Below the pieces are notes generated by a model. It saw only the letters and a list, made by a program, of their open reading frames with translations. It was not told where the DNA came from and did no database searches. From a virus, in IMG/VR virus record IMGVR_UViG_3300044606_000094, positions 1 to 30,506 of that record: DNA of 30,506 bases; one strand, written 5' to 3'. Made by a program: the position numbers and the translations under genes. The number at the start of each line of letters is the position of its first letter. The first letter of the stretch is position 1. This document shows positions 1-30,506 of the stretch, in pieces.

Positions 1-36
1 AATTGCCTATTTTTAGATTTGATGTAAACCTACCAT
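1..36. repeat. Terminal direct repeat, copy 1 (identical to 30471-30506); marks circular assembly or terminal redundancy
   Basis: Exact 36-nt identity between window start and window end, read directly. Confidence 0.9.
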
Positions 37-742
37 TACCATTGACATCTAATTTGTAAGCAGGGGATGTCGTCCCGATGCCGACATTGCCGTTCTGTAA
101 AAGAGCCATGTTTGGAGTATTACCATTTGTAGCGCTTAAAAATCCGAGTGCTCCACTATTACCCTCAAGCTGAATCGAGTATTTTTCTGTTCCCAATGCC
201 CCCTGCACCCCGCTTGTGTTTGTATTAAAGACAAGTGAGTTTCTTGCACTAGTTCCAAACATCCAAGCATCATTGCCATCCATCCTACCTGTAAGCACTA
301 AGTTATTCCTTCCATGAAAAGATGCGTTATTCGTAAAATAAAATCTCCCTGAACCATCAAAATTAGTGCTACCCATTACCTGTAATTGTCCTTGTGGCGT
401 TGTCGTCCCGATGCCAACGTTGCCGTTGTTTAAAACTACCATTGTTGAACCAGCCACTTTAAATAATGGAGCTGTTCCTGTTACTCCTGTCCCAGTTATA
501 TTAACAGATGAAGCATTTATATTATAAGCTGTCACATTTCCATTAACTCCATTCAATAAAATAGAAGGGGAATTGGCCAGAGTGCTTGTTGAAGGATAAA
601 TTTTTAATAACCCTGACAAATATCCTGTTCCATATGCTGTATAAGTTGACGCCTGCGGAGCTAACCAAAAAGGAACGCCAGCATAAATATTTATATTTAT
701 CAATGTCAATATCATCATCATTATTATTTTTTTCATTTTCAT
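1..742 (-). CDS. Tail fibre protein, 5' part (ATG at 740-742; gene runs off the window start and continues at 30470 down to 29773)
   Basis: Minus-strand frame from ATG 742 has no stop down to position 1 (checked codon by codon). RBS GGAGAA upstream. Translation has a signal/anchor-like N-terminus (MKMKKIIMMMILTLI) and repeated NGNVGIGTT(T/S)P motifs typical of fibre shafts. Confidence 0.7.
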   Translation of the reverse strand, partial: MKMKKIIMMMILTLININIYAGVPFWLAPQASTYTAYGTGYLSGLLKIYPSTSTLANSPSILLNGVNGNVTAYNINASSVNITGTGVTGTAPLFKVAGSTMVVLNNGNVGIGTTTPQGQLQVMGSTNFDGSGRFYFTNNASFHGRNNLVLTGRMDGNDAWMFGTSARNSLVFNTNTSGVQGALGTEKYSIQLEGNSGALGFLSATNGNTPNMALLQNGNVGIGTTSPAYKLDVNGNGRFTSNLKIGN

Positions 743-760
743 ATTATTTTCTCCTTATCA

Positions 761-1036
761 TTATGAAATAATTTCCCAGCTTGCTAATGTAACAAAACCA
801 TTACCTTCCGAGCCAGCATTAGCTATCCCTGTATAAAGTAAAAGAGCTCTTAAATCAGTAGGAATGGCAAGGAAAGGTATAGTAGGATTTGCTAATGCAG
901 TTGCTTTTATATTTGCCAATGTTCCTGTTTTAATTGCCTGACCACCAGAAATTAAATTAAATAAATAATCAAAATTTTCTTTTAGTTTTGTCCCATTAGG
1001 ATTTTGTCCGTTAGCAATTGTATGAGGAACTGCCAT
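761..1036 (-). CDS. Small tail/baseplate-associated protein (hypothetical)
   Basis: 91-aa ORF between the distal tail protein and the fibre gene; function from position only. Confidence 0.4.
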   Translation of the reverse strand: MAVPHTIANGQNPNGTKLKENFDYLFNLISGGQAIKTGTLANIKATALANPTIPFLAIPTDLRALLLYTGIANAGSEGNGFVTLASWEIIS

Positions 1037-1038
1037 AA

Positions 1039-3483
1039 TTATACCTCCACCAAATCTAAAGTAGTCATATAGTCATCAGGGGATAATGTAATACCCTCTA
1101 TTCTAAAATCTTTATCCCACATATTATATCTATTTTCTAAATCTTCATCATCATAATATTCAAGGTCAGGCTGACCATAAACTACATCAGTATCGCCCCA
1201 TTTCCATCTTCTTAAAACCAGTGGCTCATCAAAAAATGTTTTTACTTTATCACCCAATTCAAGATGAGGCAAAAACATTGATTCAACTTTACATCTTATT
1301 TTAGGTTCTTTCGTGTAATTCAAAATCGTAGGAGCAACAGCATAAGCCAGATTGACATTATCAGCAGGCAATAATGAGCTTGATGAAATTGAATATTGCC
1401 TATCTCCATATTTGTCAATTGAGTTAGGATGATCGTCCGATGATGCATCAGATACTTTTCTATATATTCCAAATTCAGCTACAACACGATTATATACTCT
1501 ATCTATTCCTAAATCTATACTTTTAACATCAACAATATTATTATCACTTCTCAATTCAATAACAGCAGGGACATTTGTAAAACGAGGTCTATAAATAAAA
1601 GTTTCATCAGCTTTAAAACCAAATTCATAAGCAGGCATCTCGGCTAATTTTTCTAATGCTTGTCTTGATGTCATACCAGTTAAATTAACTAAATCTATAA
1701 GAGTTGTAGAGGTGTAATATGTCAATTTAATTTCGTCAAACACAGGAGTTAAAGGATTTGACAATGATTCTAATGTAGCAGTTACTCTAAACTTCAAATA
1801 TCGTTTAACTGCTGAATTAATTAAGCCAGTTGCTCCAATAGCAACCCAACCAGCAGGATCATTGCCTGTAGAAAAATCTGAGCTATCAGAGCTATAAGTT
1901 TCAAATATTACATTAGCTCCATTTGCTGTATATATCGCATTAAAATCCCCATAGGCAGTTACATCAGAGCCACAATCTTTAACAGGGCTTTCCAAGACGC
2001 CTCTACCTACAGTAGTGCCATTTTCCCAGAAGTAAAAATCATCAAAATAAAATATACGAGTCTGATCTGACCAATAAGCAACATAAGGTATGAGATAAAA
2101 ACCATTAGTAGTATTATGTGTTGTATCAGTTGCAGTCCCTTTTAAAACTTCATTGATGTATAATTTAAAAACACCATTTTCATCCCTTGAAATTCTATAT
2201 ACAAGTTCTATAGAATGATAATATAAATAACTTGTATCAATTAATAAAGTATCTACTCCTGCTGTTCTTTTAAAAAGACGAACCACCACACCCATTGGAC
2301 TTGGATATATAATTATATAATATCCATCATTAGGTTCTTCATTAATACCTGTTTCATTCAATCCTATTATCCATATAGTTAAAGGCATAGCATTATTACT
2401 CCAAGCTTTAAAAATCCAATTACCAGTTGTTTTTTGTAAAGGTAAAAAAAGATTTGGATTATTATCTAAACCCAATGAATTAACTTTCAATATATTTTCA
2501 TTTACTTCCCAACCATCATATTTAACTGTCCATTCAGGATTTTCATCATAATTACCATCTCCAAAATCATCAATCAAACCAATCTTAAAACTACCAGGCG
2601 TTGTAATTGTGTCTATATTAGTTTTAGTGCAAGTATCCCAATCATCTTTGCTATTAAAATCCCAAGTATTTTCAATTGAACTGCTAAATATAGCTGGAGA
2701 TATATCATAATTAGTTATTCCATTCAATATCATTATTTGTTCTACAAGCCACTCTAAAGTCTTATCCTGATACCAATATCTGTAAGAGCAATATAATTTT
2801 TCACCTGCTGTTAATTCGCTTACAAGAGTAATTTTAAGAGGCAGACTTTTTTGATTCAAATCAGATATAGTATAATCTATCTGAGGCTTAATTTCAGTAG
2901 CAGTTTCTAATGTTGTCCCTCTTTTAATATTGATTATTATCCCTACTCCATTATTATCTGTTGTAAATTCTGCTCCTGAATCTTGACCTACCAATTCATC
3001 ATTTACAAGTGTTGATATAGTTTCAGCATTCTTGTTGCCAAATTTTGATATTCCACTTTGAATAACAATATTGCAAGTCTTATTAACTAAATCATAATTC
3101 AAGTCATCAGAGATATAACCAGTAAAACTTTTTAATAATTCAAAACTACCATCAGCAAGTTGTGCACCAAATTTGATAACAATCTTTGAATCAACAACCT
3201 GATAATTACCAGAGAAAAACCCTTTTTCATTTCCCTGCTTCCATTGATTTCTATCATTACGAAAAACAATAGAAGTATTATCAAGTGTCCAAACATTAAA
3301 ACCTTCAGCATCCATCTTCCATCTTATTTCAGACATTTCTTTTACTTCACTTGTTATATCAATAGCTGTATCATAAACGAACGATCCATTTATCCATAAT
3401 TTACGATATAATTCAACAACTTTTTTATAGACAGGATTTTTTCTTTCAAGTGATTTTTTTAATTCGTTAGAAATATCTTGCAT
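1039..3483 (-). CDS. Large distal tail protein (Tal-like tail-tip protein)
   Basis: 814-aa ORF immediately after the Dit-like gene and tape measure, which is the usual siphovirus order; no catalytic motif recognised. Confidence 0.45.
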   Translation of the reverse strand: MQDISNELKKSLERKNPVYKKVVELYRKLWINGSFVYDTAIDITSEVKEMSEIRWKMDAEGFNVWTLDNTSIVFRNDRNQWKQGNEKGFFSGNYQVVDSKIVIKFGAQLADGSFELLKSFTGYISDDLNYDLVNKTCNIVIQSGISKFGNKNAETISTLVNDELVGQDSGAEFTTDNNGVGIIINIKRGTTLETATEIKPQIDYTISDLNQKSLPLKITLVSELTAGEKLYCSYRYWYQDKTLEWLVEQIMILNGITNYDISPAIFSSSIENTWDFNSKDDWDTCTKTNIDTITTPGSFKIGLIDDFGDGNYDENPEWTVKYDGWEVNENILKVNSLGLDNNPNLFLPLQKTTGNWIFKAWSNNAMPLTIWIIGLNETGINEEPNDGYYIIIYPSPMGVVVRLFKRTAGVDTLLIDTSYLYYHSIELVYRISRDENGVFKLYINEVLKGTATDTTHNTTNGFYLIPYVAYWSDQTRIFYFDDFYFWENGTTVGRGVLESPVKDCGSDVTAYGDFNAIYTANGANVIFETYSSDSSDFSTGNDPAGWVAIGATGLINSAVKRYLKFRVTATLESLSNPLTPVFDEIKLTYYTSTTLIDLVNLTGMTSRQALEKLAEMPAYEFGFKADETFIYRPRFTNVPAVIELRSDNNIVDVKSIDLGIDRVYNRVVAEFGIYRKVSDASSDDHPNSIDKYGDRQYSISSSSLLPADNVNLAYAVAPTILNYTKEPKIRCKVESMFLPHLELGDKVKTFFDEPLVLRRWKWGDTDVVYGQPDLEYYDDEDLENRYNMWDKDFRIEGITLSPDDYMTTLDLVEV

Positions 3484-3485
3484 TA

Positions 3486-4247
3486 TTATTTTTCCTCTAA
3501 TGACAACGATAGATTAAATAATCTTTCTTTCCTATTAATATTAAAATTAGGAGCATTTACTATTTGAAACTCATAAATATCAGAAATATTAAAATCTTGA
3601 TAAAATATAACTATTATAAATTCATTCTGTTTCATATAAGGCAATAAAATATTTAGATTGTCCAATGATACATTTTCAATTGATAATTTACCTGATACTT
3701 TTGTCCATTCTTTCCAAGAGACTAATTTACCACCAGCCAATCTATAATCATTACCACGCATAGAATCATTTCTTGAAAAATCACTCAACCATTCAGGCTC
3801 TTCAAGAATTGATTTACAGATTTTTAATTCTCCGATTTGTTTTTCTTGATTAGCTATTTGCGTGGTTTTACAATTTAACCTAATTCTGCTGACAGGAATA
3901 GGAGGAGGTTGTGTAATTTCAATAATTGTGTATGCTTCGTTTTCAATTATCAATCCAGCCCCTGGGATATTAATCCAATCTGTGCCATTGTAATATTCAA
4001 AAGTAACAAATTTTAGATTATGATTTAAAATTATTATTCTATTAAAATCTCTGTTTATTTCCTCACCTTGCCAATTTTTGAAAGTGATATCTATATGCTC
4101 TATTATATTATCATTAGAACCTTCACTTACCCATTTAGTAGCCTGATTTTGGTCAAACAAATAATTTTTAGTAGCAGACCCAGATGTAGGTTCTATACTA
4201 CAATATTCATTTATATAATTTTCACTACATATTTTAATACCGTTCAT
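3486..4247 (-). CDS. Distal tail protein (Dit-like) or minor tail protein
   Basis: 253-aa ORF directly downstream of the tape-measure gene; assignment by position and size. Confidence 0.4.
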   Translation of the reverse strand: MNGIKICSENYINEYCSIEPTSGSATKNYLFDQNQATKWVSEGSNDNIIEHIDITFKNWQGEEINRDFNRIIILNHNLKFVTFEYYNGTDWINIPGAGLIIENEAYTIIEITQPPPIPVSRIRLNCKTTQIANQEKQIGELKICKSILEEPEWLSDFSRNDSMRGNDYRLAGGKLVSWKEWTKVSGKLSIENVSLDNLNILLPYMKQNEFIIVIFYQDFNISDIYEFQIVNAPNFNINRKERLFNLSLSLEEK

Positions 4248-6133
4248 ATAGTTGTATTACCTGCCTTTTTAAGTCCAACCTTATAATTTACCTTTGCTAA
4301 TTCAACAGCTGATAGAACGCCTGACCTTGTAGCCTTTGCAAGTTTATCAGCTATCACTGATATATCTGTTTCAGATGTCCCGCCTATTGTTATGTTTTGT
4401 GAAAGGGTTATGTTAGGAGCTCCTATTCCAGCACCTGCACCTGCAGGGATAAGTGAGGATGGCATAGGAACAGGATTATTCTTAATAGAATTAACCACAT
4501 CAGCAGGGATAACCTCCTCGCCTTTATGTAATAGATACGGTCCCGTTTCAGGTATATATCCACCTTCTTTACGAGTGCCTAACAAAAATTTCTCTGCCAT
4601 ACCACCAAACCCTAATCCAGTCAGAGCCTTAAATAATAACCATTTTGCTATCATCTGTGAAACCATAGAGATAAAAGAATTTAAAATGCTTTTAAAAATA
4701 CCACTTAATAATTTTTTAAAATTGTCAAACATATTTCCTGATGACTTTATAAATGTTTCTATTGCTGATGACATTCCAGATATTGTAGATGACCACATCG
4801 CATCCCACGCCTGTGCCCATCCCATACCTGATGATTTCATTCTATCAATAGATTGCAAGAATGACCCTGCCATAGTCGCATTATCACGAGCATATATTTC
4901 CTGAGCTCTAATCATAAGAGCTTCCTTTTGCTCTAATGTTTTCTCATCCCAAGAACCCTGCTCACCATATATAAATTGTAAATAACTTAATTCTGCCTCA
5001 CCTTTTGCCGATAGATACCATTCATCAACTTCTTTTAATTTTCTTTCTGCTTGTTTTTTTGCTTCTGCTAATTCCTCTTCATTTATTGTAGGTGCAGGTT
5101 TTGCTGCAGGTTTTTCAAGAGGTTTAGGTGCAGGTTTTGCTGCAGGTTTTGCAGCATTCTCTTTTGCTATTGCTTTTTCTAATTCTATTTTTGTATCAGT
5201 TAAATTTTTTAAAGTAGTAGAATAATCAAGCCACTGCTTATTTGATATAACATTTGATGTTTGTGCTTGTAAATCTATAATCTTTTGTAAATTTGCTCTA
5301 TATATTTTTATTTGCTCATTAGTAGCATCAAGTCTTATTTCATTCAAACTTTTACCAGCATTACTTGCTCTCTCTTCTGATTTTGTTATTTCTTCAAACC
5401 AGCCAGTTACAGATTCTAATTTTTCTAACCAAAAATCTATTACAGGTATTAATTCCTTTCCAATTCTTTCCTTTAAATCACTTATTCTATTTTCAAAAAC
5501 TTTTAATTTACCGCTTGTTGTTTCTGCTTCTGTTGTAGCGATATTAAATCCATCAGCCAAAAGTTTAGTAACAGCTGCAGCCTTCTCTGTTTCGTCTGTC
5601 ATAGAGCGGAGCTGAGGGATATATCGCTGAAGCATCGTATAATCACCTTGACCAGCAAGAGCGACCATTTTAATAGCACTATTCAAATCAACACCATATG
5701 CCTTTGAAAGTCCAATCGCTTGTTTTGTAGCTTCCCCTATCTTATCAGCAGATATGCCCATTGACAAACCTAACTGCATTACAGCAAGAGCATCCTCATC
5801 GCTTACAGTAGTTATCTTTTGGATTTCAGAAGCTAAATTTTGCAATTGATTAGAAAGCGAATCGCTATATATTCCTTGTGAACGAAGTTGCTGATTAAGA
5901 CGAGCAACAGCTTCCTCTGACTTTGCATATTCATTCCAGCAATCTTTTGCAAAGTCTATTGTTTTATATATTGCAGCACCGCCTGCGAATAAACCACCGA
6001 TTTTTGTGAATGTAGATTTTAAATTTGATGCTGAATCATCAGTTTGATTGATATGACTTTTTGCTTCTTCCAAACCTTTCGGGTCAAATAGAGTTCCAAG
6101 TCGTATGTAGAATTTAGCGAATTCTCCAGCCAT
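4244..6133 (-). CDS. Tail tape measure protein
   Basis: 629-aa, helix-rich, with a low-complexity AAKPAAKPAPKPLEKPAAKPAP stretch; lies between the chaperone pair and distal tail genes. Confidence 0.8.
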   Translation of the reverse strand: MAGEFAKFYIRLGTLFDPKGLEEAKSHINQTDDSASNLKSTFTKIGGLFAGGAAIYKTIDFAKDCWNEYAKSEEAVARLNQQLRSQGIYSDSLSNQLQNLASEIQKITTVSDEDALAVMQLGLSMGISADKIGEATKQAIGLSKAYGVDLNSAIKMVALAGQGDYTMLQRYIPQLRSMTDETEKAAAVTKLLADGFNIATTEAETTSGKLKVFENRISDLKERIGKELIPVIDFWLEKLESVTGWFEEITKSEERASNAGKSLNEIRLDATNEQIKIYRANLQKIIDLQAQTSNVISNKQWLDYSTTLKNLTDTKIELEKAIAKENAAKPAAKPAPKPLEKPAAKPAPTINEEELAEAKKQAERKLKEVDEWYLSAKGEAELSYLQFIYGEQGSWDEKTLEQKEALMIRAQEIYARDNATMAGSFLQSIDRMKSSGMGWAQAWDAMWSSTISGMSSAIETFIKSSGNMFDNFKKLLSGIFKSILNSFISMVSQMIAKWLLFKALTGLGFGGMAEKFLLGTRKEGGYIPETGPYLLHKGEEVIPADVVNSIKNNPVPMPSSLIPAGAGAGIGAPNITLSQNITIGGTSETDISVIADKLAKATRSGVLSAVELAKVNYKVGLKKAGNTTI

Positions 6134-11999: not shown

Positions 12000-12028
12000 A
12001 TTATATAAAATTATTTAATTGTTGTCAA
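12000..12028 (-). promoter_or_regulatory. Sigma70-type promoter P1 (TTGACA, 17 bp, TATAAA) upstream of the prohead protease gene
   Basis: Minus-strand -35 TTGACA at 12023-12028 and -10 TATAAA at 12000-12005; short leader with no SD before ATG 11979. Confidence 0.55.
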
Positions 12029-14157
12029 GTATTTTTTTTCACAACAGGGAATATAGTGCATCTACAATTAATAGAATCACCGGGCAAACTCATATCCCCA
12101 GGGGCTTGTCCTGTCGCTCCAGTTGATAGAACAAAATCCTCATCAATAGGGATTGCTCCATGTATCCCATATCTATGTCCTGCCTCTGCATGTGCCTCAC
12201 GCGTAACCTCGTCATAAGCAGGCAACCATCCTTTGAGCTCAACCATTTCATTTTCTCTGTATGCTTCAATTGAGCCAGCATTCAAAGATGATATAACTTC
12301 AGTCTGTGCTATACGAAGCGTTCTATAATCCCGCTCCATATCAAAGACTTCAGCAACTCGTTTAGATATAACCTCTATACCTGAACCGAGAGCTATTTCT
12401 TCATCAATAACTTTCTGTAATTTTTTTCTTGTAGTGTTATTTATATTTTGAGCCCATTGAAAACATTTAAGTTTTATCCAGTCCTCTATCCTTGACTTTG
12501 ATTTTTCTTGCATAACAGGAGCATCTTTTTTAGTCCATTCTTTAAGCAATAAATTCTCTGAATCTCTGCCTTCATAAATTGATTTGCGTATATGAGGTGT
12601 CATAACTTTTTCAAGTTCTTCATCCATCTCTCTGTCTGATATACCAATATCCATTAGATTAGGTATTTGTCCTGTATATTTAGAAAGTGCTTTTAATATT
12701 TTATCTCTTTGATTATCAAAATACTTTCTAACATCTTTTTGCATCGGCTTACTTAAATTATTTGCTAATATAATAAAGCGATGATGTTTTGATTTGAGCA
12801 TAGCCCTTGATGGAGTGATATTTGCTTTATATCCTTCATCAAATTCTTTCATCATCTTTTCATAATTAAAGTTAACAGAATTAGAATTATTTCCTTCAGG
12901 CATTGAGCCAGAAGGATAAACAGACACAGGAATATAAGACACATCAGTAATGCCTTTTACTTTTGAGAAAGGCAAGTCATAGGCATCTATAAGCGTGTCC
13001 ATAGGTATGCCCATTTGCCAATATCTATTTATATAGTTAGATCGTTTTTCCTCATCAGCCCTTAAAGCCTTTATCTCTGATTCAACTATATCAAAATAAA
13101 TTTTGCCTGTTTTATCAAACAGAGGAACATAAAACTCATTTAATATCTGACATATCTTTTCAGCTTTTGGCAATATCGTAGATCGCCAATATATCTTTTC
13201 TTGCTCCTCTGAATTTGCATAATTTGCGTATTCAAATATCCCGACCATAGCAGGAGGAACGCCAAACACTGCACATATATCTTCCCTGCTCATTTTAGTT
13301 TGTAAAACGAAATCCATATCTTTTTGTGAAACGCCAAGCATTTCAACTTTTGCTCCTTTTTCAATGAATACAACGCCATGAGAATTTTTATTTCCTTTAT
13401 ATTGCTGATTCCAATTTTCACGCATACGATTGCGTTGCTGTTGTGAGAGAGGATTAGGTGCAACAATAGCAATATCAGGACGAGCAGAATTTTTAAGAAA
13501 ATTAAGATTCCATTTGCTACCTGCATTATGTGTTTCTACTCCAATGCGTGCTGCAGCAAGAGGTGCAAGTCCATAGTGATAATCAAGAGGATTAAAGTTT
13601 TTAAAATGTATTATTTCCTCTGGCTTAAATATTATAGATTTTCCATTAACCAAATACTCATAACCTTTTATAAATTCGTTTGGATTATCAGATTTCAAAA
13701 TCTTTACATATGAAGGAATCAAAGGCCAGATCATAGTTGGAATACCTTTTGAATTATTAACTTCTAATTTCCAGTAAGCATTCCCAGTAAGCTCAAGACC
13801 GCCCTGTGTCCATTCAAGTAAATCAGACATTGTCATCTGATTATTAACTTTGTAAAGCAAATCAAGAGCAGGATGCTCATATATAGTTTCATCTTTTTCA
13901 TTGTAGAGAGCGATAGGAACAGAACTTATATCTTGTATAATTCTATGAACACAATTAAAAACCCATATGCTATCAGCATAAGCCTTTAAATAAGAATCAT
14001 AAGAATTTTGAGAGGGAGAAGGCAATTCATCATCAAGCTCAAATAATTCTGAATAGGTAGGACTTAAAAAAGATTTTTCTTTTGATGTGAATATATTTTT
14101 AATATTTTTAGCACTTCTGATTATTTTTTCAAACATTTGAATATTATAGTAAAACAA
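12025..14157 (-). CDS. Portal protein fused to a C-terminal SPP1 gp7-like (Mu F-like) head morphogenesis domain; likely start ATG at 14136
   Basis: 710-aa ORF after TerL. C-terminus KGWLPAYDEVTREAHAEAGHRYG...INCRCT matches the gp7 / Mu F family signature. The listed start is TTG; the first ATG is at 14136. Confidence 0.65.
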   Translation of the reverse strand: MFYYNIQMFEKIIRSAKNIKNIFTSKEKSFLSPTYSELFELDDELPSPSQNSYDSYLKAYADSIWVFNCVHRIIQDISSVPIALYNEKDETIYEHPALDLLYKVNNQMTMSDLLEWTQGGLELTGNAYWKLEVNNSKGIPTMIWPLIPSYVKILKSDNPNEFIKGYEYLVNGKSIIFKPEEIIHFKNFNPLDYHYGLAPLAAARIGVETHNAGSKWNLNFLKNSARPDIAIVAPNPLSQQQRNRMRENWNQQYKGNKNSHGVVFIEKGAKVEMLGVSQKDMDFVLQTKMSREDICAVFGVPPAMVGIFEYANYANSEEQEKIYWRSTILPKAEKICQILNEFYVPLFDKTGKIYFDIVESEIKALRADEEKRSNYINRYWQMGIPMDTLIDAYDLPFSKVKGITDVSYIPVSVYPSGSMPEGNNSNSVNFNYEKMMKEFDEGYKANITPSRAMLKSKHHRFIILANNLSKPMQKDVRKYFDNQRDKILKALSKYTGQIPNLMDIGISDREMDEELEKVMTPHIRKSIYEGRDSENLLLKEWTKKDAPVMQEKSKSRIEDWIKLKCFQWAQNINNTTRKKLQKVIDEEIALGSGIEVISKRVAEVFDMERDYRTLRIAQTEVISSLNAGSIEAYRENEMVELKGWLPAYDEVTREAHAEAGHRYGIHGAIPIDEDFVLSTGATGQAPGDMSLPGDSINCRCTIFPVVKKNT

Positions 14158-14171
14158 AAATATTTTGTCAA
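14143..14171 (-). promoter_or_regulatory. Sigma70-type promoter P2 (TTGACA, 17 bp, TATAAT), probably giving a leaderless portal mRNA
   Basis: -35 at 14166-14171, -10 at 14143-14148, then 6 nt to ATG 14136 with no SD. Confidence 0.55.
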
Positions 14172-14196
14172 GAACTATTTTTTATTTTAGTTTGGA

Positions 14197-15982: not shown

Positions 15983-15988
15983 AGCAAT

Positions 15989-16017
15989 AGTATAATCAAT
16001 TATTTATTGTTTGTCAA
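15989..16017 (-). promoter_or_regulatory. Sigma70-type promoter P3 (TTGACA, 17 bp, TATACT), probably giving a leaderless TerS mRNA
   Basis: -35 at 16012-16017, -10 at 15989-15994, 6 nt to ATG 15982, no SD. Confidence 0.55.
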
Positions 16018-16031
16018 GTTTTTTCTATAAA

Positions 16032-16298
16032 TTAATTTATTAGTGTGAAAACTATTTTTTCAAAAATACCAGTATAATTTGGATAGAGATTATCATAAAC
16101 CTCCTTCATTTCAGGAGGGATTAAAAATTGTGTCTTATCAATTATTTTTACTTTGGCGAAAGGTGGACGTGGTCCTACTGTTAAAGTAATAATTTCTCCT
16201 ATATTAGGATTTCTGTTACTTTTTTTACGAATAGTATAATTTTTTTCACCTGACAATATTGGTTTAACATATTTCTCTTTGAACCATAAAGATTTCAT
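16032..16298 (-). CDS. ASCH (PUA-like) domain protein
   Basis: 88-aa; KYVKPILSGEKNYTIRK resembles the ASCH core; strong RBS AGGAGG; start overlaps the stop of the upstream gene (ATGA). Confidence 0.55.
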   Translation of the reverse strand: MKSLWFKEKYVKPILSGEKNYTIRKKSNRNPNIGEIITLTVGPRPPFAKVKIIDKTQFLIPPEMKEVYDNLYPNYTGIFEKIVFTLIN

Positions 16299-17377
16299 TT
16301 TCTACCTCCTATATATCTAAATGAAGCCGTAAGTCTCCTAAAAGATGAAATTTTTTTATGCATAATATTATTAGGAGTACAATGTCCTAATCTCCTTAAT
16401 TGCCATTTAGGACTTCTTGAACGATGAAAAATCATAGCAGGATGAGATGTTGTAGATATAAAAATAAATCCTTTTTTAGTTAAATAATTACCTAACCATT
16501 CTGATAATATATTGCCTATTCCAAGCCCCTGATAATCTGGTAAAACTACTGTTCTATGTTCTCTTTTATACTTCATACTTGAAGAATGAGGAAAATGAAT
16601 ATAACTGGTAAAAGCAACTGGTTTATTTTCCCAATAAGCAACAAAACATTGTGCTTGATCCGCTATATCAGCACTTAAATAATGATTTCCTCTAAAAATT
16701 TTCCACATACTTCTATCTGTTTTATAGATTTTGAGTTTAATTTTGGGGCGTCCTTGAAGAGACCTCCAATTAAATTCATTTTTTGTAACATCATAAATCC
16801 AATCAGGTTGTAACCATTCAATAATATCATAATGACAAGATAATAAAACTATTTTTTTATCTGGAAAATTTTTACGAAAAACTTTTTGAAGACAATGAGA
16901 TACTGTTTTTGCAACATCTCTATCTATAACAGAAGTAAATTCATCTATTACTATATTCTTATATTCGCTTAATATAACTCGCACCAAATCTACCCTAAAT
17001 TTTTGTCCATTTGAAAGTGTATGCCAAGATTTAAGCCACGCTACTGGAGAACTTAAACCAATATTATTTAATACTTCTATAATTTTTTTTATTGGAATAT
17101 CTTTATTAAAATCATTTAAAAAAGAATCATCTTTTTTCCATTTAAATCCTGTTATCATTTTAAAATCTTTAAAAATCTCAGAAGCAATAACTGTTTTACC
17201 TGAACCTGAATTACCAACAATTAATCCTATATTCCATTTTTTATTTTCTAATGGCAATGAAACATCCCATTCGTGTTTTACTTCAGTCATATTAGGAATA
17301 TCAAATATTCCAATTACACTATCAACTCTATAACTCTTTTTCACTGGAGTGGTTCTTACAATGTGATAATTCGGCAT
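16295..17377 (-). CDS. ABC-type ATPase domain fused to a GNAT-like acyltransferase domain
   Basis: Walker A GNSGSGKT, ABC signature-like LSNGQKFRVDLVRVIL, Walker B IVIDEF, H-loop-like LLSCHYD; C-terminal VVLPDYQGLGIGNILSEWL resembles GNAT motif A. Confidence 0.55.
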   Translation of the reverse strand: MPNYHIVRTTPVKKSYRVDSVIGIFDIPNMTEVKHEWDVSLPLENKKWNIGLIVGNSGSGKTVIASEIFKDFKMITGFKWKKDDSFLNDFNKDIPIKKIIEVLNNIGLSSPVAWLKSWHTLSNGQKFRVDLVRVILSEYKNIVIDEFTSVIDRDVAKTVSHCLQKVFRKNFPDKKIVLLSCHYDIIEWLQPDWIYDVTKNEFNWRSLQGRPKIKLKIYKTDRSMWKIFRGNHYLSADIADQAQCFVAYWENKPVAFTSYIHFPHSSSMKYKREHRTVVLPDYQGLGIGNILSEWLGNYLTKKGFIFISTTSHPAMIFHRSRSPKWQLRRLGHCTPNNIMHKKISSFRRLTASFRYIGGRK

Positions 17378-19099: not shown

Positions 19100-19585
19100 T
19101 TACTTATTTATCCTTCTATCTTTACCTTCAATTTTTACAAGCTTACATATTCCTGCTATCCTGCTTGCTATTCTATCATCGTAAACCTTTGCCAATTCTG
19201 ATATAGATAAATTTGAGTTAATAATCAGTGCCTCTGGATTATATAGTGTTCTTTTATCAAGCACTTCATAAACGACAGAATATGAAAACTCGGTCAATTT
19301 CTCAACGCCTATATCATCAATAATCAAATGTCTTTGATTGACAATTTTATTTATATATTCATATTCATCAAGAGCTGTTTTACAAGCCCTGACATCTCTG
19401 ACTATGTCAGATACTTTTTTATATAAGAAATTTCCGAAATGCTTGCCGATGGCAATAGATGTGTATGTTTTACCTACGCCTATGCCACCATAGATATACA
19501 AACCAAATTTCGGATAACCAGAACATTGTGCAATTATTTTTTTAGGTATGTTTTTATAATCAGCATTATTTATCAAATTTAGCAT
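19100..19585 (-). CDS. DnaC/IstB-like AAA+ ATPase (replicative helicase loader)
   Basis: Walker A GGIGVGKT and Walker B LIIDDIG; directly downstream of the initiator gene. Confidence 0.7.
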   Translation of the reverse strand: MLNLINNADYKNIPKKIIAQCSGYPKFGLYIYGGIGVGKTYTSIAIGKHFGNFLYKKVSDIVRDVRACKTALDEYEYINKIVNQRHLIIDDIGVEKLTEFSYSVVYEVLDKRTLYNPEALIINSNLSISELAKVYDDRIASRIAGICKLVKIEGKDRRINK

Positions 19586-20546
19586 ATTTCTCCTCTATTT
19601 CTTTATCTGTCATTTTTATCATATTAGGCAATTTCTTTTTGCCATTGCCAAGATTTATATATCGCCCCTCTAAAACTTTTGGCATATTGGTAGGCCTGAT
19701 AAGCCATTCAAAATCAGCCCGCCACCCGTGATCGTTCTCACCAAGAAGAAAAGGCATATTTTTAACATCATTAAAATATTTCTCCCACCATTCAAGATTA
19801 TTCCTTTCCTCCTTGTTTTCGTTTATCCTTGCCTTAAGACAACTTTTTCGTTGCTTATTAAATATTTTACATTCGGATAGATAACTACCTAAAATATTAT
19901 TATAACTATTTTTAATGTCTTCCAATAACTTATCTATATCATTTAAATTTTGTGATTGTTGTTTTATTGGTTCTGTTGGTTCAGGTTGAGGTTGAGTTTC
20001 AATTTCATTTTTTATCTCTCCCTCTTTGGGGGGTAGGGGGGTATAATCTTTTATATTATTATCATTTATCTTATTATCCTTTATTAGATGGGTCATATTT
20101 GATACTTCTGAATGGTCATTTTTGATACTTCTGAAGGAACATTTTTGATACTTCTGAAGGTTCATATTTGTTAGTTCTGAATTATATTTTTGATAGTTTG
20201 TTTTTTCTGTTAAAATTATAAATCTTATTTTACCACCGCCATTTTTTATTATTGTTTTAGTTTCTATGAAACCATTTTCTTTTAATTCTTTCAGGGCTCT
20301 TTTAATTCTAATTTCATTGACATTGAACATCTTGCATAAATGTTCTGTGCTAAAATAGAATTTATCTGATTTATAACTTATAACAAAAGCCAATATTTTA
20401 AGTGCAGTTCCTGATAGGTCTTCCTGATATAGCCAATCAGGTATAACAAGAAATCTTAACTTAAATAAAGTTTCTTGGCTTTCTTTCAATAATTCTAACT
20501 CTTGCTTATTTATCTTTACCTCATTATTTATATTTTCGTTTTCCAT
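19566..20546 (-). CDS. Replication initiator / replisome organiser (N-terminal winged HTH, C-terminal conserved phage domain)
   Basis: N-terminal HTH-like LSGTALKILAFVISYKS...IRIKRALKELKENGFIE; C-terminal GWRADFEWLIRP...KVLEGRY; iterons embedded in the linker; partner loader gene follows. Confidence 0.6.
   Translation of the reverse strand: MENENINNEVKINKQELELLKESQETLFKLRFLVIPDWLYQEDLSGTALKILAFVISYKSDKFYFSTEHLCKMFNVNEIRIKRALKELKENGFIETKTIIKNGGGKIRFIILTEKTNYQKYNSELTNMNLQKYQKCSFRSIKNDHSEVSNMTHLIKDNKINDNNIKDYTPLPPKEGEIKNEIETQPQPEPTEPIKQQSQNLNDIDKLLEDIKNSYNNILGSYLSECKIFNKQRKSCLKARINENKEERNNLEWWEKYFNDVKNMPFLLGENDHGWRADFEWLIRPTNMPKVLEGRYINLGNGKKKLPNMIKMTDKEIEEKYAKFDK
20093..20200. repeat. Iteron array: about 4.5 tandem copies of a 23-bp unit (CATWTTTGATACTTCTGAA-like), putative replication origin
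   Basis: Tandem copies start at 20093, 20116, 20139, 20162 and 20185, flanked by an AT-rich stretch (20032-20092) and a G-tract GGGGGGTAGGGGGG (20018-20031); the 23-bp period is not a multiple of 3. Confidence 0.6.
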
Positions 20547-26687: not shown

Positions 26688-26816
26688 ATCATCCTCTTTT
26701 TATCTCCGCCTGCCGTTTTTTTTAAAAATCGGTCAGGGCTTACGAGATTTTTTCTTTTCTTTTTGCCTTATCTTTTTTGCTTTGCTTTTAAGAGAACTCT
26801 TTTTCCTTATACTTAT

Positions 26817-26845
26817 ATTATAGCAGACTATTGTTATTTTGTCAA
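26817..26845 (-). promoter_or_regulatory. Sigma70-type promoter P6 (TTGACA, 17 bp, TATAAT)
   Basis: -35 at 26840-26845, -10 at 26817-26822; part of a 35-bp block nearly identical to the one at 27975-28009. Confidence 0.6.
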
Positions 26846-26987
26846 GTCTTTTTTTTTATATTTTGTTTTTTCGTATTGACTTAAATCAATATGACATTTA
26901 TCAATATAAATAAAATAAACCATTGACAAACAAATAAAAATTATTTCACTTTTTTACTTTATTATTTTTGATTTTTGATATGATTAA

Positions 26988-28318: not shown

Positions 28319-28867
28319 TCATCTCCTTTTAAATAAATCAATTTCAAATCGTGGGGCATTTCCTTTTAGCCACCCAACCTGAAACCATCTTTTAAATAGA
28401 TAAAATTCTAAGTAGTATCTATTGCCATTTGTGTATTCTCTCAATTCCCATCTATATCCTTTCTTATCTTTACATAATGTAGCAAAATCTTGCTTACCGC
28501 CCGATTTTATTATTTTTATAAATTTACCTAAATTATAAGCAGAATAATTATTCCAATTGACCATCGCATTGCGTATAGCGTTGAAATAATAACTTAATAT
28601 AAACTCATTATGCCATTTCCAAATCCAAGAGGGATAATAACCTTCCTTGTTAGCATACTCAACCCCATATGTCATAAGCTCGCTATCATTCAAAAAGAAA
28701 TATAATGGCTTAAATTTTGGCTCATATAAATATCCTTCCCATAATATCTTATTGTAGTTCCTTAATTTATGCCTAAATAAATAAGCAATAGGATATATGA
28801 GAGGAGCTAATATGTCCTTTATGAGAGAAAACAATATATACCCTATAAATATTAGTTTTTCTTTCAC
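28319..28867 (-). CDS. Membrane-anchored Trp/Tyr-rich protein of unknown function
   Basis: N-terminal transmembrane helix (LIFIGYILFSLIKDILAPLIYPIAYLF) then aromatic-rich domain; GTG start after RBS AGGAGAAG. Confidence 0.45.
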   Translation of the reverse strand: MKEKLIFIGYILFSLIKDILAPLIYPIAYLFRHKLRNYNKILWEGYLYEPKFKPLYFFLNDSELMTYGVEYANKEGYYPSWIWKWHNEFILSYYFNAIRNAMVNWNNYSAYNLGKFIKIIKSGGKQDFATLCKDKKGYRWELREYTNGNRYYLEFYLFKRWFQVGWLKGNAPRFEIDLFKRR

Positions 28868-29340
28868 GATACTTCTCCTAAATCAAATATCTCTGGCATC
28901 TCGCCAAACGCCCAATTTAGCCCCATCACAGCATTTTCCTTGCCTATATTACAAACTAATGGCACATAACAATTCCATTTACCTGTATAAACTTTTGACC
29001 TGCTGGGATAGATTACAGCGATATGACCATGCCCATCAATATTCTTTTGTGATGCTACAAATATTTTAGGCACATAAAAATCAGCATGTATATCAACCTT
29101 CGGATACTTTGCTTTTAACACATCATACATCTCATTTGCCATCATCATCCTACCAAGTTGTTTATTCCAAAAATCTGATTGTTTACCTAATTCATTAAGT
29201 ATCATATACACACCCACATTACAATATGTTATACTATTTGCTCCATTCATATCCTTTTTGAATAGGTTAGCGTCTGCCAAAGTCTTGTGGCATGCTAACA
29301 ATATTTTTTGTAGTTTTAAGTCGTTGTTTTCAATAGCCAT
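28864..29340 (-). CDS. Putative cell-wall hydrolase / endolysin candidate (papain-like Cys/His motifs?)
   Basis: Sits in the lysis cassette; ITYCNVGVYMI and GHGHIAVIY loosely resemble NlpC/P60 or CHAP Cys and His motifs; weak assignment. Confidence 0.3.
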   Translation of the reverse strand: MAIENNDLKLQKILLACHKTLADANLFKKDMNGANSITYCNVGVYMILNELGKQSDFWNKQLGRMMMANEMYDVLKAKYPKVDIHADFYVPKIFVASQKNIDGHGHIAVIYPSRSKVYTGKWNCYVPLVCNIGKENAVMGLNWAFGEMPEIFDLGEVS

Positions 29341-29772
29341 TTATTGTCTCTTCTCTAATGTTTCAATAATGTAATAAGACGTTCATTATCTATTATGTCG
29401 TATACTTCTTTGAATGAAAAAGTATGCCCAGTTGCCAAGAATAAACATATGTTTTTCTTATTATTATTTTTCTGCATTGATACCTCCTAATGTATTATTT
29501 CTCTTATTATCCTCATACTCATCTTCGTAAGAAATTCTATATCCATTAACACATTACTTCTTATGCTATGTCTTGCAGTATAAGCAAAAGGATAAAGCAA
29601 GGCGGATATTGTTCTTTTAATTGGCTCAATTACCAAAAATAAAATAATCATATATTATAACTCCTTTCGCCAATCAAATTTATACTTGCTTTTGTCTTTT
29701 TTGCTTTTAATAATTCTTATGTATGTTTTTATAGCGTCTTTTTTTCTTATTTTAATTTTCATAGTTTATTAG

Positions 29773-30506
29773 TTAAAATATTCTTGTAACCGCAAAATAG
29801 CTAAAAATTGGACGAAGCACTAAATTGCTTCCAACAGTATATTTAACAAAAGTTTCTATATAATCATTTACATTAAGACAAGCAGGAACTGCCACGCCAA
29901 AAGTAAGCCCGCCATGTGCGTTTGGCCCACTTGTACTCCCTTCTTGATATATGAGACCATTTATATTAAGTGCTAAAAACTTATCTGACACTGTGCCATC
30001 CCCACCCTTAAATAAATTAGCATTAACTGTAATTAAATAACACCCGTTTTGCGTAACAATATATTTATCGTTTGTTGTGTCATAATATCCATTTTTGTTA
30101 ATAATTATGTTATCCCAATCAACCTTATAATAAGTATTATCCGCTGGTAATGTTTGCTCCGAACTCCTTTTAGCAAAAAACACTGCTCCGTTATATGATA
30201 AAATTCCATTAGTAGTTATATTTACAATATACCCGTCGCTTGAATTACTATTACTATCAATAGTCAAAGCATACTGCTGGCTTGAATTGGCATTAATTGT
30301 TATACTTGAATTAAATACACTGTTATTCTGATATTTATTCTGCCCAGTCCAAGTTTGAGTAGCAGATAACACAGCATCACCGCCACCAGCAGGACTACCC
30401 CAAGATACAGTTCCTGAACCATTTGTTTTTAGGAATTGACCATTTGACCCATCAGCGGTTGGTAGTGTATAATTGCCTATTTTTAGATTTGATGTAAACC
30501 TACCAT
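29773..30506 (-). CDS. Tail fibre protein, 3' part with C-terminal C1q/TNF-like globular domain (in frame with 1-742 across the circular junction)
   Basis: Frame stays open from 30468 to the listed ORF at 30372 (checked). C-terminal sequence YKVDWDNIIINKNGYYD...KYIVTQNGCYLITVNA resembles a C1q-type jelly-roll head. The listed start at 30372 is a GTG inside the open frame. Confidence 0.65.
   Translation of the reverse strand, partial: GRFTSNLKIGNYTLPTADGSNGQFLKTNGSGTVSWGSPAGGGDAVLSATQTWTGQNKYQNNSVFNSSITINANSSQQYALTIDSNSNSSDGYIVNITTNGILSYNGAVFFAKRSSEQTLPADNTYYKVDWDNIIINKNGYYDTTNDKYIVTQNGCYLITVNANLFKGGDGTVSDKFLALNINGLIYQEGSTSGPNAHGGLTFGVAVPACLNVNDYIETFVKYTVGSNLVLRPIFSYFAVTRIF
30471..30506. repeat. 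Terminal direct repeat, copy 2 (identical to 1-36)
   Basis: Exact 36-nt identity with 1-36; repeat may extend beyond the window edge. Confidence 0.9.

Follow-up and report, generated by a model that had tools for sequence, protein, structure and literature searches.

Exact repeats at the two ends of a contig are an already known, routine signature of a complete metagenomic viral sequence. Terminal repeats (DTRs) of at least 20 bp have been described as the outcome of assembling circular or concatemer-replicating genomes, and in the CheckV survey the repeat lengths of the contigs that carry them were seen to cluster at the k values used by assemblers (PMC8116208). Of relevance to the gene found at the ends of the sequence studied here, C1q heads have already been described on the tail fibres of phage-tail-like injection systems (PMC12923769). 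The stretch of DNA that we analysed (hereafter the window, 30,506 nt in length) ends in an exact repeat that lies inside a tail-fibre gene with a C1q-like head, and the evidence gathered below supports the conclusion that it is a complete, circular-mapping genome of siphovirus type with a unique length of 30,470 bp, in which the fibre gene runs across the junction of the two ends.

Direct comparison of the two ends confirmed the claim of the initial annotation that positions 1-36 are exactly equal to positions 30471-30506 (AATTGCCTATTTTTAGATTTGATGTAAACCTACCAT), and the match is limited to these 36 bases, with the neighbouring bases differing. The 36-mer is of mixed composition and not of low complexity, and no third copy of it occurs on either strand of the window; a search permitting up to three mismatches recovered the two terminal copies only, with none found in 100 dinucleotide-preserving shuffles. 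In a genome-wide repeat scan the terminal pair constitutes a two-copy family (D7) with a spacing of 30470, accompanied by no further long repeat, the largest other repeat family in the window being of 52 nt at 79% identity. Since long internal direct repeats are missing, the window is not a concatemer of genome copies. Neither base composition nor strand skew changes across the two window ends. Removal of one copy of the repeat leaves 30,470 bp, in line with the unique genome of about 30470 bp that had been claimed.

Upon joining the sequence at the repeat and re-reading its genes, we observed that the minus-strand frame starting at ATG 742, which is open to base 1, continues unshifted into 30470 to 29773, giving a single fibre ORF of 1440 nt that comprises 479 codons and a TAA stop at 29773-29775. 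Codon 248 (TAT) straddles the join, its first base being position 1 of the window and its other two positions 30470-30469. In the ORF list of the linear window this gene appears as a GTG-started 199-aa ORF at 29773-30372, with no minus-strand ORF in 1-760. The initial annotation had read the frame from ATG 742 as being in frame, through the junction, with the ORF ending at 29773, and had taken the apparent gap at 1-760 and the GTG-started ORF to be one gene of about 480 codons; both claims are borne out on the joined sequence, the product being of 479 aa and its start being preceded by an AAGGAG ribosome-binding site (Table 1).

As proof of the join, this in-frame test is weaker than it appears, because the repeat sits in a conserved fibre motif at which a join of two different fibre genes would likewise stay in frame. 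The motif encoded by the repeat, NGRFTSNLKIGNY, is placed between a GNVGIGTTSP..YKLDVNG motif and a widespread YTLPTADG..GQFLKT..SW motif, and an exhaustive search with fibre residues 237-479 recovered 1028 representative proteins at E <= 0.001; among the matches listed for these residues most fall on the YTLPTADG motif, and many do so in 5-23 stretches. At the level of sequence comparison, the doubt thus raised is removed by a second contig, L001.

Table 1. Features of the window, with dN/dS and dS from the comparison with L001
Feature	Window position	Strand	dN/dS	dS	Remarks
Left repeat copy	1..36				minus-strand coding: fibre residues 236-247 and first base of codon 248, motif NGRFTSNLKIGNY
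Right repeat copy	30471..30506				redundant; its removal gives the 30,470-bp unique genome
Shine-Dalgarno AAGGAG	751..756	-			8 nt upstream of fibre ATG 742
Fibre, 5' part	1..742	-			codons 1-247 and first base of codon 248
Fibre, 3' part	29773..30470	-			remainder of codon 248 to stop; YTLPTADG..GQFLKT..SW motif just past the junction
Fibre anchor, aa 1-68	742-539	-	0.04	0.37	signal-peptide-like N-terminus; conserved
Exchangeable middle module, aa 69-217	538-92	-			flanked by two GNVGIGTTxP motifs
Fibre residues 218-335			0.11	0.57	
C1q/TNF-like (gC1q) head, aa 336-479	29776..30207	-	2.2	0.033	dN 0.074; presumed receptor-binding tip
91-aa gene	761..1036	-			directly upstream of fibre; in relatives kept between tail-tip gene and fibre
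814-aa tail-tip (Tal-like) gene	1039..3483	-			
Tape measure	4244-6133				then 253-aa distal-tail-like gene, 814-aa tail-tip gene, 91-aa gene, fibre
Spacer	29341..29772	-			432 bp between fibre stop and 158-aa gene; three tiny ORFs (35, 54, 40 aa)
158-aa gene	28864..29340	-	0.08	0.42	downstream of fibre; 94% identical in L001; homologues right after fibre in L002, L004, L005
182-aa gene			0.08	0.66	

L001 is a 3,368-bp metagenome contig from a separate assembly (JGI sample 3300025686), identical to L007 and about 90% identical to the window. Its positions 1-198 match window 737-540 at 92.4%, covering the N-terminal anchor of the fibre; positions 716-1503 match window 91 to 1 continued by 30470 to 29774 in one ungapped 788-nt HSP at 90.4%; and positions 1501-3368 match window 29358-27494 at 90.8%. 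A single L001 gene hence holds homologues of both window ends, sharing with the window fibre the anchor and the C-terminal 262 residues, with 86% identity to the joined fibre at the protein level over aa 215-479, and only the middle module (window 92-539) differs. The genes downstream of it in L001 (158 aa, 182 aa and beyond) match window 28864-29340, 28319-28867 and further on, at 89-98%. Based on this comparison, which we regard as the decisive piece of evidence, the two ends of the window are likely to be contiguous in nature. An exact 64-mer spanning the junction found no match in viral or metagenome contig collections, so that no second assembly of this very genome was recovered, and, because the middle module of L001 differs, the window's exact combination of fibre modules is without an independent sighting.

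Using the 814-aa tail-tip gene as the query, we obtained further syntenic relatives, of which three more distant ones (L002, L004 and L005) keep the order tail-tip gene, 91-aa gene, fibre and homologue of the 158-aa gene. The record IMGVR_UViG_3300002097_000066, of 30,027 bp and reconstructed from L032 and L002, extends from a ParB-like gene through the small terminase, large terminase and portal to the 814-aa tail-tip gene, which is followed contiguously by the 91-aa gene, a fibre of 463 aa, a gene of 108 aa and the homologue of the 158-aa gene; in L004 and L005 the homologues of the 91-aa and 158-aa genes lie about 2.6 kb apart. The related contigs are of 30,027, 30,050 and 31,711 bp; the one rebuilt in full is without a terminal repeat, and none of them is a proven complete reference.

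On the circular map the genome displays a full siphovirus-type gene complement, with all genes on the minus strand. Profile searches recovered the hallmark portal (3.7e-76), HK97-fold capsid (7.2e-50) and large terminase (1.2e-27), together with the small terminase, prohead protease, tape measure, RecT, exonuclease, O-like initiator and DnaC-like loader; the early and replication genes comprise a RecT-like annealing protein, exonucleases, the O-like initiator, the DnaC-like loader and a VRR-NUC nuclease, and genes for a ParB-like protein and an ATPase-GNAT fusion are also present. The gene order runs from the early and replication genes through the small and large terminase, a portal-MuF-like fusion, the protease, the HK97-fold capsid, the head-tail and tail genes and the tape measure to the distal tail protein, the tail tip, the 91-aa gene, the fibre and a putative lysis region, and on the circular map the fibre is followed by a holin-like protein and small genes. 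The full collinear gene set, along with the reading of L001 across the junction, upholds the earlier claim of a complete circular phage genome, provided that "circular" is understood as a statement on the map and not on the molecule. Profile searches found no integrase, excisionase or repressor among the window ORFs, and neither a tRNA nor a host-like flank is seen in the window.

Several other features of the genome were recorded in passing. Four tandem 23-nt iterons (approximately GAAKGNNCATWTTTGATACTTCT) lie at 20087-20201 inside the gene for the O-like initiator (19566-20546), an arrangement of the lambda type, in which the origin is situated inside the initiator gene. A 360-aa protein that combines an ABC-type P-loop ATPase with a GNAT acetyltransferase domain is encoded at 16295-17377 (minus strand), in the interval from the ParB-like gene to the terminase genes; it matches phrog_11143 (2e-97), a family without an assigned function. 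The portal gene (12025-14157, minus strand) is one ORF of 710 aa that couples an HK97-type portal (residues 66-384) with a Mu F / SPP1 gp7-like minor head protein domain at its C-terminus (residues 579-702); translation probably begins downstream of the TTG start that is listed for it. About 415 bp of the spacer downstream of the fibre (29359-29773) is absent from L001, in which the fibre and the 158-aa gene are 16 nt apart, and the spacer at 29341-29772 may be a small inserted gene cassette.

With regard to expression signals, a perfect sigma-70-type promoter, TTGACA-17-TATAAT with a TG before the TATAAT, is found at 26817-26845 (minus strand) within the intergenic region 26688-26987 that precedes the first early gene, and a 73%-similar copy of its surrounding 48 nt, also with TTGACA, occurs at 14141-14188, in between the genes for the large terminase and the portal. 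Of the 46 genes, 30 have a Shine-Dalgarno box upstream. Judged from these sequence signals, the promoters and Shine-Dalgarno boxes argue against a Bacteroidota host, despite the homologues of a fibre module in Pedobacter and Chitinophaga.

In light of these observations, we consider it highly probable that the repeat is an assembly overlap derived from a circular-mapping genome, the contig having been opened inside the tail-fibre gene; we read it in this way because the window passes every false-positive filter named in the CheckV paper (PMC8116208). Short reads of a genome with a circular map would have been assembled, and the contig would have been opened at an arbitrary or graph-determined point, in this case within the fibre gene. 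The circular map itself may come from a circular replicon, from a circularly permuted genome packaged by the headful, or from concatemeric or end-joined DNA; a circular map alone cannot tell permuted virion DNA from fixed ends situated elsewhere. We infer that the assembler, and not the virion DNA, is the source of the repeat, an origin that cannot be read from the repeat length because 36 is not among the usual final k values (55, 77, 99 and so on). The position of the break inside the fibre gene would in turn probably be due to strain-level variation of the fibre. That same variability could be marshalled for a false or chimeric circularisation, in which the ends would stem from two fibre genes of a larger genome or from two co-occurring strains, so that the joined gene would be an artefact or a chimera and the genome perhaps incomplete: the repeat lies inside a conserved fibre motif and adjoins a segment matching more than 1000 representative proteins, fibre modules are exchanged between close relatives (L001 having another middle module and L010 another shaft after residue 67), and the contigs of three independent assemblies end in or at the fibre gene. 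We nevertheless hold this to be improbable, given that a single L001 gene comprises both the anchor and the C-terminal part and is trailed by the genes found downstream in the window, that the relatives have one fibre locus between the homologues of the 91-aa and 158-aa genes, and that the gene order of the circularised sequence is canonical and complete, no gene being obviously absent; even a strain chimera would remain a circular, complete genome.

Two other origins would place the repeat in biology and not in the assembly. The 36 bp might be a true terminal redundancy of linear virion DNA, that is, a very short repeat in the style of T7, with the fibre gene split in the particle and restored on circularisation or concatemer formation. 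The location of all genes on one strand, as in T7-like layouts, agrees with this, as does a weak match of the large terminase to the NCBIfam T7-type terminase model (NF033889, E 4e-6), the score of which, however, is 25.8 bits against a cutoff of 150. Known exact terminal repeats of phages typically measure at least 100 bp and are located outside coding sequence, at the map's early end, whereas the repeat in the window falls within codons 236-248 of the fibre gene, a site that L001 reads straight through. From the one-strand layout, fixed ends, if there are any, would be expected just upstream of the small terminase gene (about 15983-16031) or in the intergenic stretch of 300 bp at 26688-26987, and not in a conserved coding motif of the fibre, and we accordingly deem a T7-style redundancy very unlikely. 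The probability that the repeats are the attL and attR cores of a prophage excised in silico is close to negligible: a short exact direct repeat around roughly 30 kb of phage genes does resemble att sites, but the searches of the ORFs detected no integrase, excisionase or repressor, there is neither a tRNA nor host DNA, and an attP within a coding motif of the tail fibre would disrupt the gene on integration. Moreover, alignment against bacterial genome contigs recovered no relatives of the Tal-like tail-tip protein, and for the portal only relatives at or below 36% identity, in MAGs of Elusimicrobiales, Armatimonadota and Chloroflexota. The assembly overlap of a circular-mapping genome is therefore the reading that we retain.

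We then examined the fibre itself. That the spanning gene is a tail fibre, as the initial annotation had named it, is sustained by several lines of evidence: matches to the tail fiber families phrog_9942 (9.6e-7) and phrog_18345 (5.4e-5), homologues whose source records call them "Phage tail fibers" or "tail fiber domain-containing protein", a position after the tape measure, distal-tail-like, tail-tip and 91-aa genes, that is, at the distal end of the tail module and in the same order in relatives, and an architecture of an anchor, swapped modules and a C1q-like head. As judged from its sequence, the 479-aa product would consist of four parts, namely an N-terminal anchor, an exchangeable shaft module, a conserved linker motif that contains the cut site, and the C1q-like head. 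The anchor is 92% identical to L001 at the DNA level and near-identical in L010, the fibre of which diverges completely afterwards. The pair of GNVGIGTTxP motifs around the middle module forms the DNA repeat family D4 (63-114 / 396-447), and the closest relatives of this module, at 55-72%, are proteins of Pedobacter, Chitinophaga and various MAGs. Residues 218-335 hold the linker motifs. With the C-terminal 183 aa a word-index homologue search gave no match, P0001 included, which reflects a limit of the word index, and an AlphaFold2 model of the homologue P0001 from a 31-sequence alignment had a mean pLDDT of 42 and was unusable.

The assemblies of close relatives break at this same gene: L001 starts 5 nt into it, L010 stops near residue 115 of a variant fibre, and the window junction falls there as well. 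The occurrence of breaks in or at the fibre in three independent assemblies suggests that microdiversity of the fibre fragments assembly graphs at this gene.

The fibre start, residues 1-21 (742-680, minus strand), reads MKMKKIIMMMILTLININIYA followed by GVPFW, with a K-rich n-region, a hydrophobic core of 14 residues and, ahead of a possible cleavage site, small residues; this start thereby resembles a Sec signal peptide, which would be unusual for a virion fibre. The signal-like start is kept in the relatives L002 (12698-14089) and L004 (11663-13391), and in L004 and L005 three consecutive small ORFs after an 81-aa gene all have signal-peptide-like starts.

At the opposite end of the protein, the head as a single sequence matches Pfam C1q at an E-value of 7e-4 and 20.3 bits against a gathering threshold of 23.7, and CTRP5/C1QL in the PDB at E-values of 0.004-0.008. 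A profile built from nine head copies detected C1q (9.1e-14), CTRP5 (3.2e-8) and C1QL2 (9.9e-8) in the PDB, with coverage of profile positions 9-126 of 143, as well as Bacillus BclA (5e-3). The divergence values of Table 1 come from a codon-by-codon comparison of the window with L001, in which fibre residues 317-479 (29776-30264, minus strand) differ from L001 1015-1503 by 25 non-synonymous and 3 synonymous changes, with the differences in the head clustered at residues 401-436 and 457-470. The dS of the head, 0.03, contrasts with 0.4-0.6 in the flanking genes. This pattern fits a head that would be a recently shared module under diversifying or relaxed selection. A diversity-generating retroelement acting on the head was also considered and rejected, there being no reverse transcriptase among the ORFs and no template repeat in this genome; a sensitive blastn of 29773-30130 against the genome returned only the self-match and no template repeat.

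A more far-reaching proposal can be assembled from these features, which we regard as rather doubtful: that the cut is non-random, with the fibre being a population hot spot that swaps modules at the GNVGIGTTSP..YKLDVNG and YTLPTADG..GQFLKT linkers; that the C1q-like head was recently transferred and is under positive selection in the absence of a retroelement; and that the signal peptide of Sec type is functional. If true, a functional Sec signal on the fibre would point to an unusual export or assembly route for a receptor-binding protein of the virion.

In practice, the window can be used as a complete genome (30,470 bp) of an uncultivated phage of siphovirus type. This requires that genes be called on the circularised sequence; otherwise, the fibre is missed or shown as a truncated 199-aa ORF with an apparent gap of 760 bp, and it is this receptor-binding fibre that is the gene most informative about host range. 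Conceptually nothing here is new, terminal repeats being a standard completeness criterion for metagenomic viruses.

Compared with the contigs with terminal repeats for which the completeness criterion of CheckV and IMG-VR was described (PMC8116208), the window is alike in having an exact end repeat of at least 20 bp that is neither low-complexity nor internal, in bearing viral hallmarks, and in that the removal of one copy restores an interrupted gene; it differs in that 36 is not a common assembler k value and in that the break lies in a strain-variable fibre gene, where two other assemblies of close relatives break as well. No close cultured relative of the phage emerged: neither cultured phages nor plasmids yielded a match to the window in megablast searches, tblastn of the large terminase against isolated phages gave a best match of 24%, to Sinorhizobium phages, and phmmer of the same protein against the PDB found no structural relative. 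The fibre resembles the mosaic fibres of siphoviruses in its conserved N-terminal 67-68 residues (92% at the DNA level, L001/L010), in the swapping of distal modules at linkers and in its location, with the tape-measure, distal-tail and tail-tip genes ahead of it and the putative lysis region behind it, and differs from them by its N-terminus resembling a Sec signal. With the fibres of eCIS (PMC12923769) it shares a C1q domain at the distal end, with the difference that the C1q-like domain of the window is predicted on a siphovirus-type phage fibre. Finally, relative to the gC1q heads of C1q, CTRP5, C1QL and Bacillus BclA, the C-terminal 144 residues of the fibre match nearly the full domain, with family-profile E-values of 9e-14 to 1e-6.
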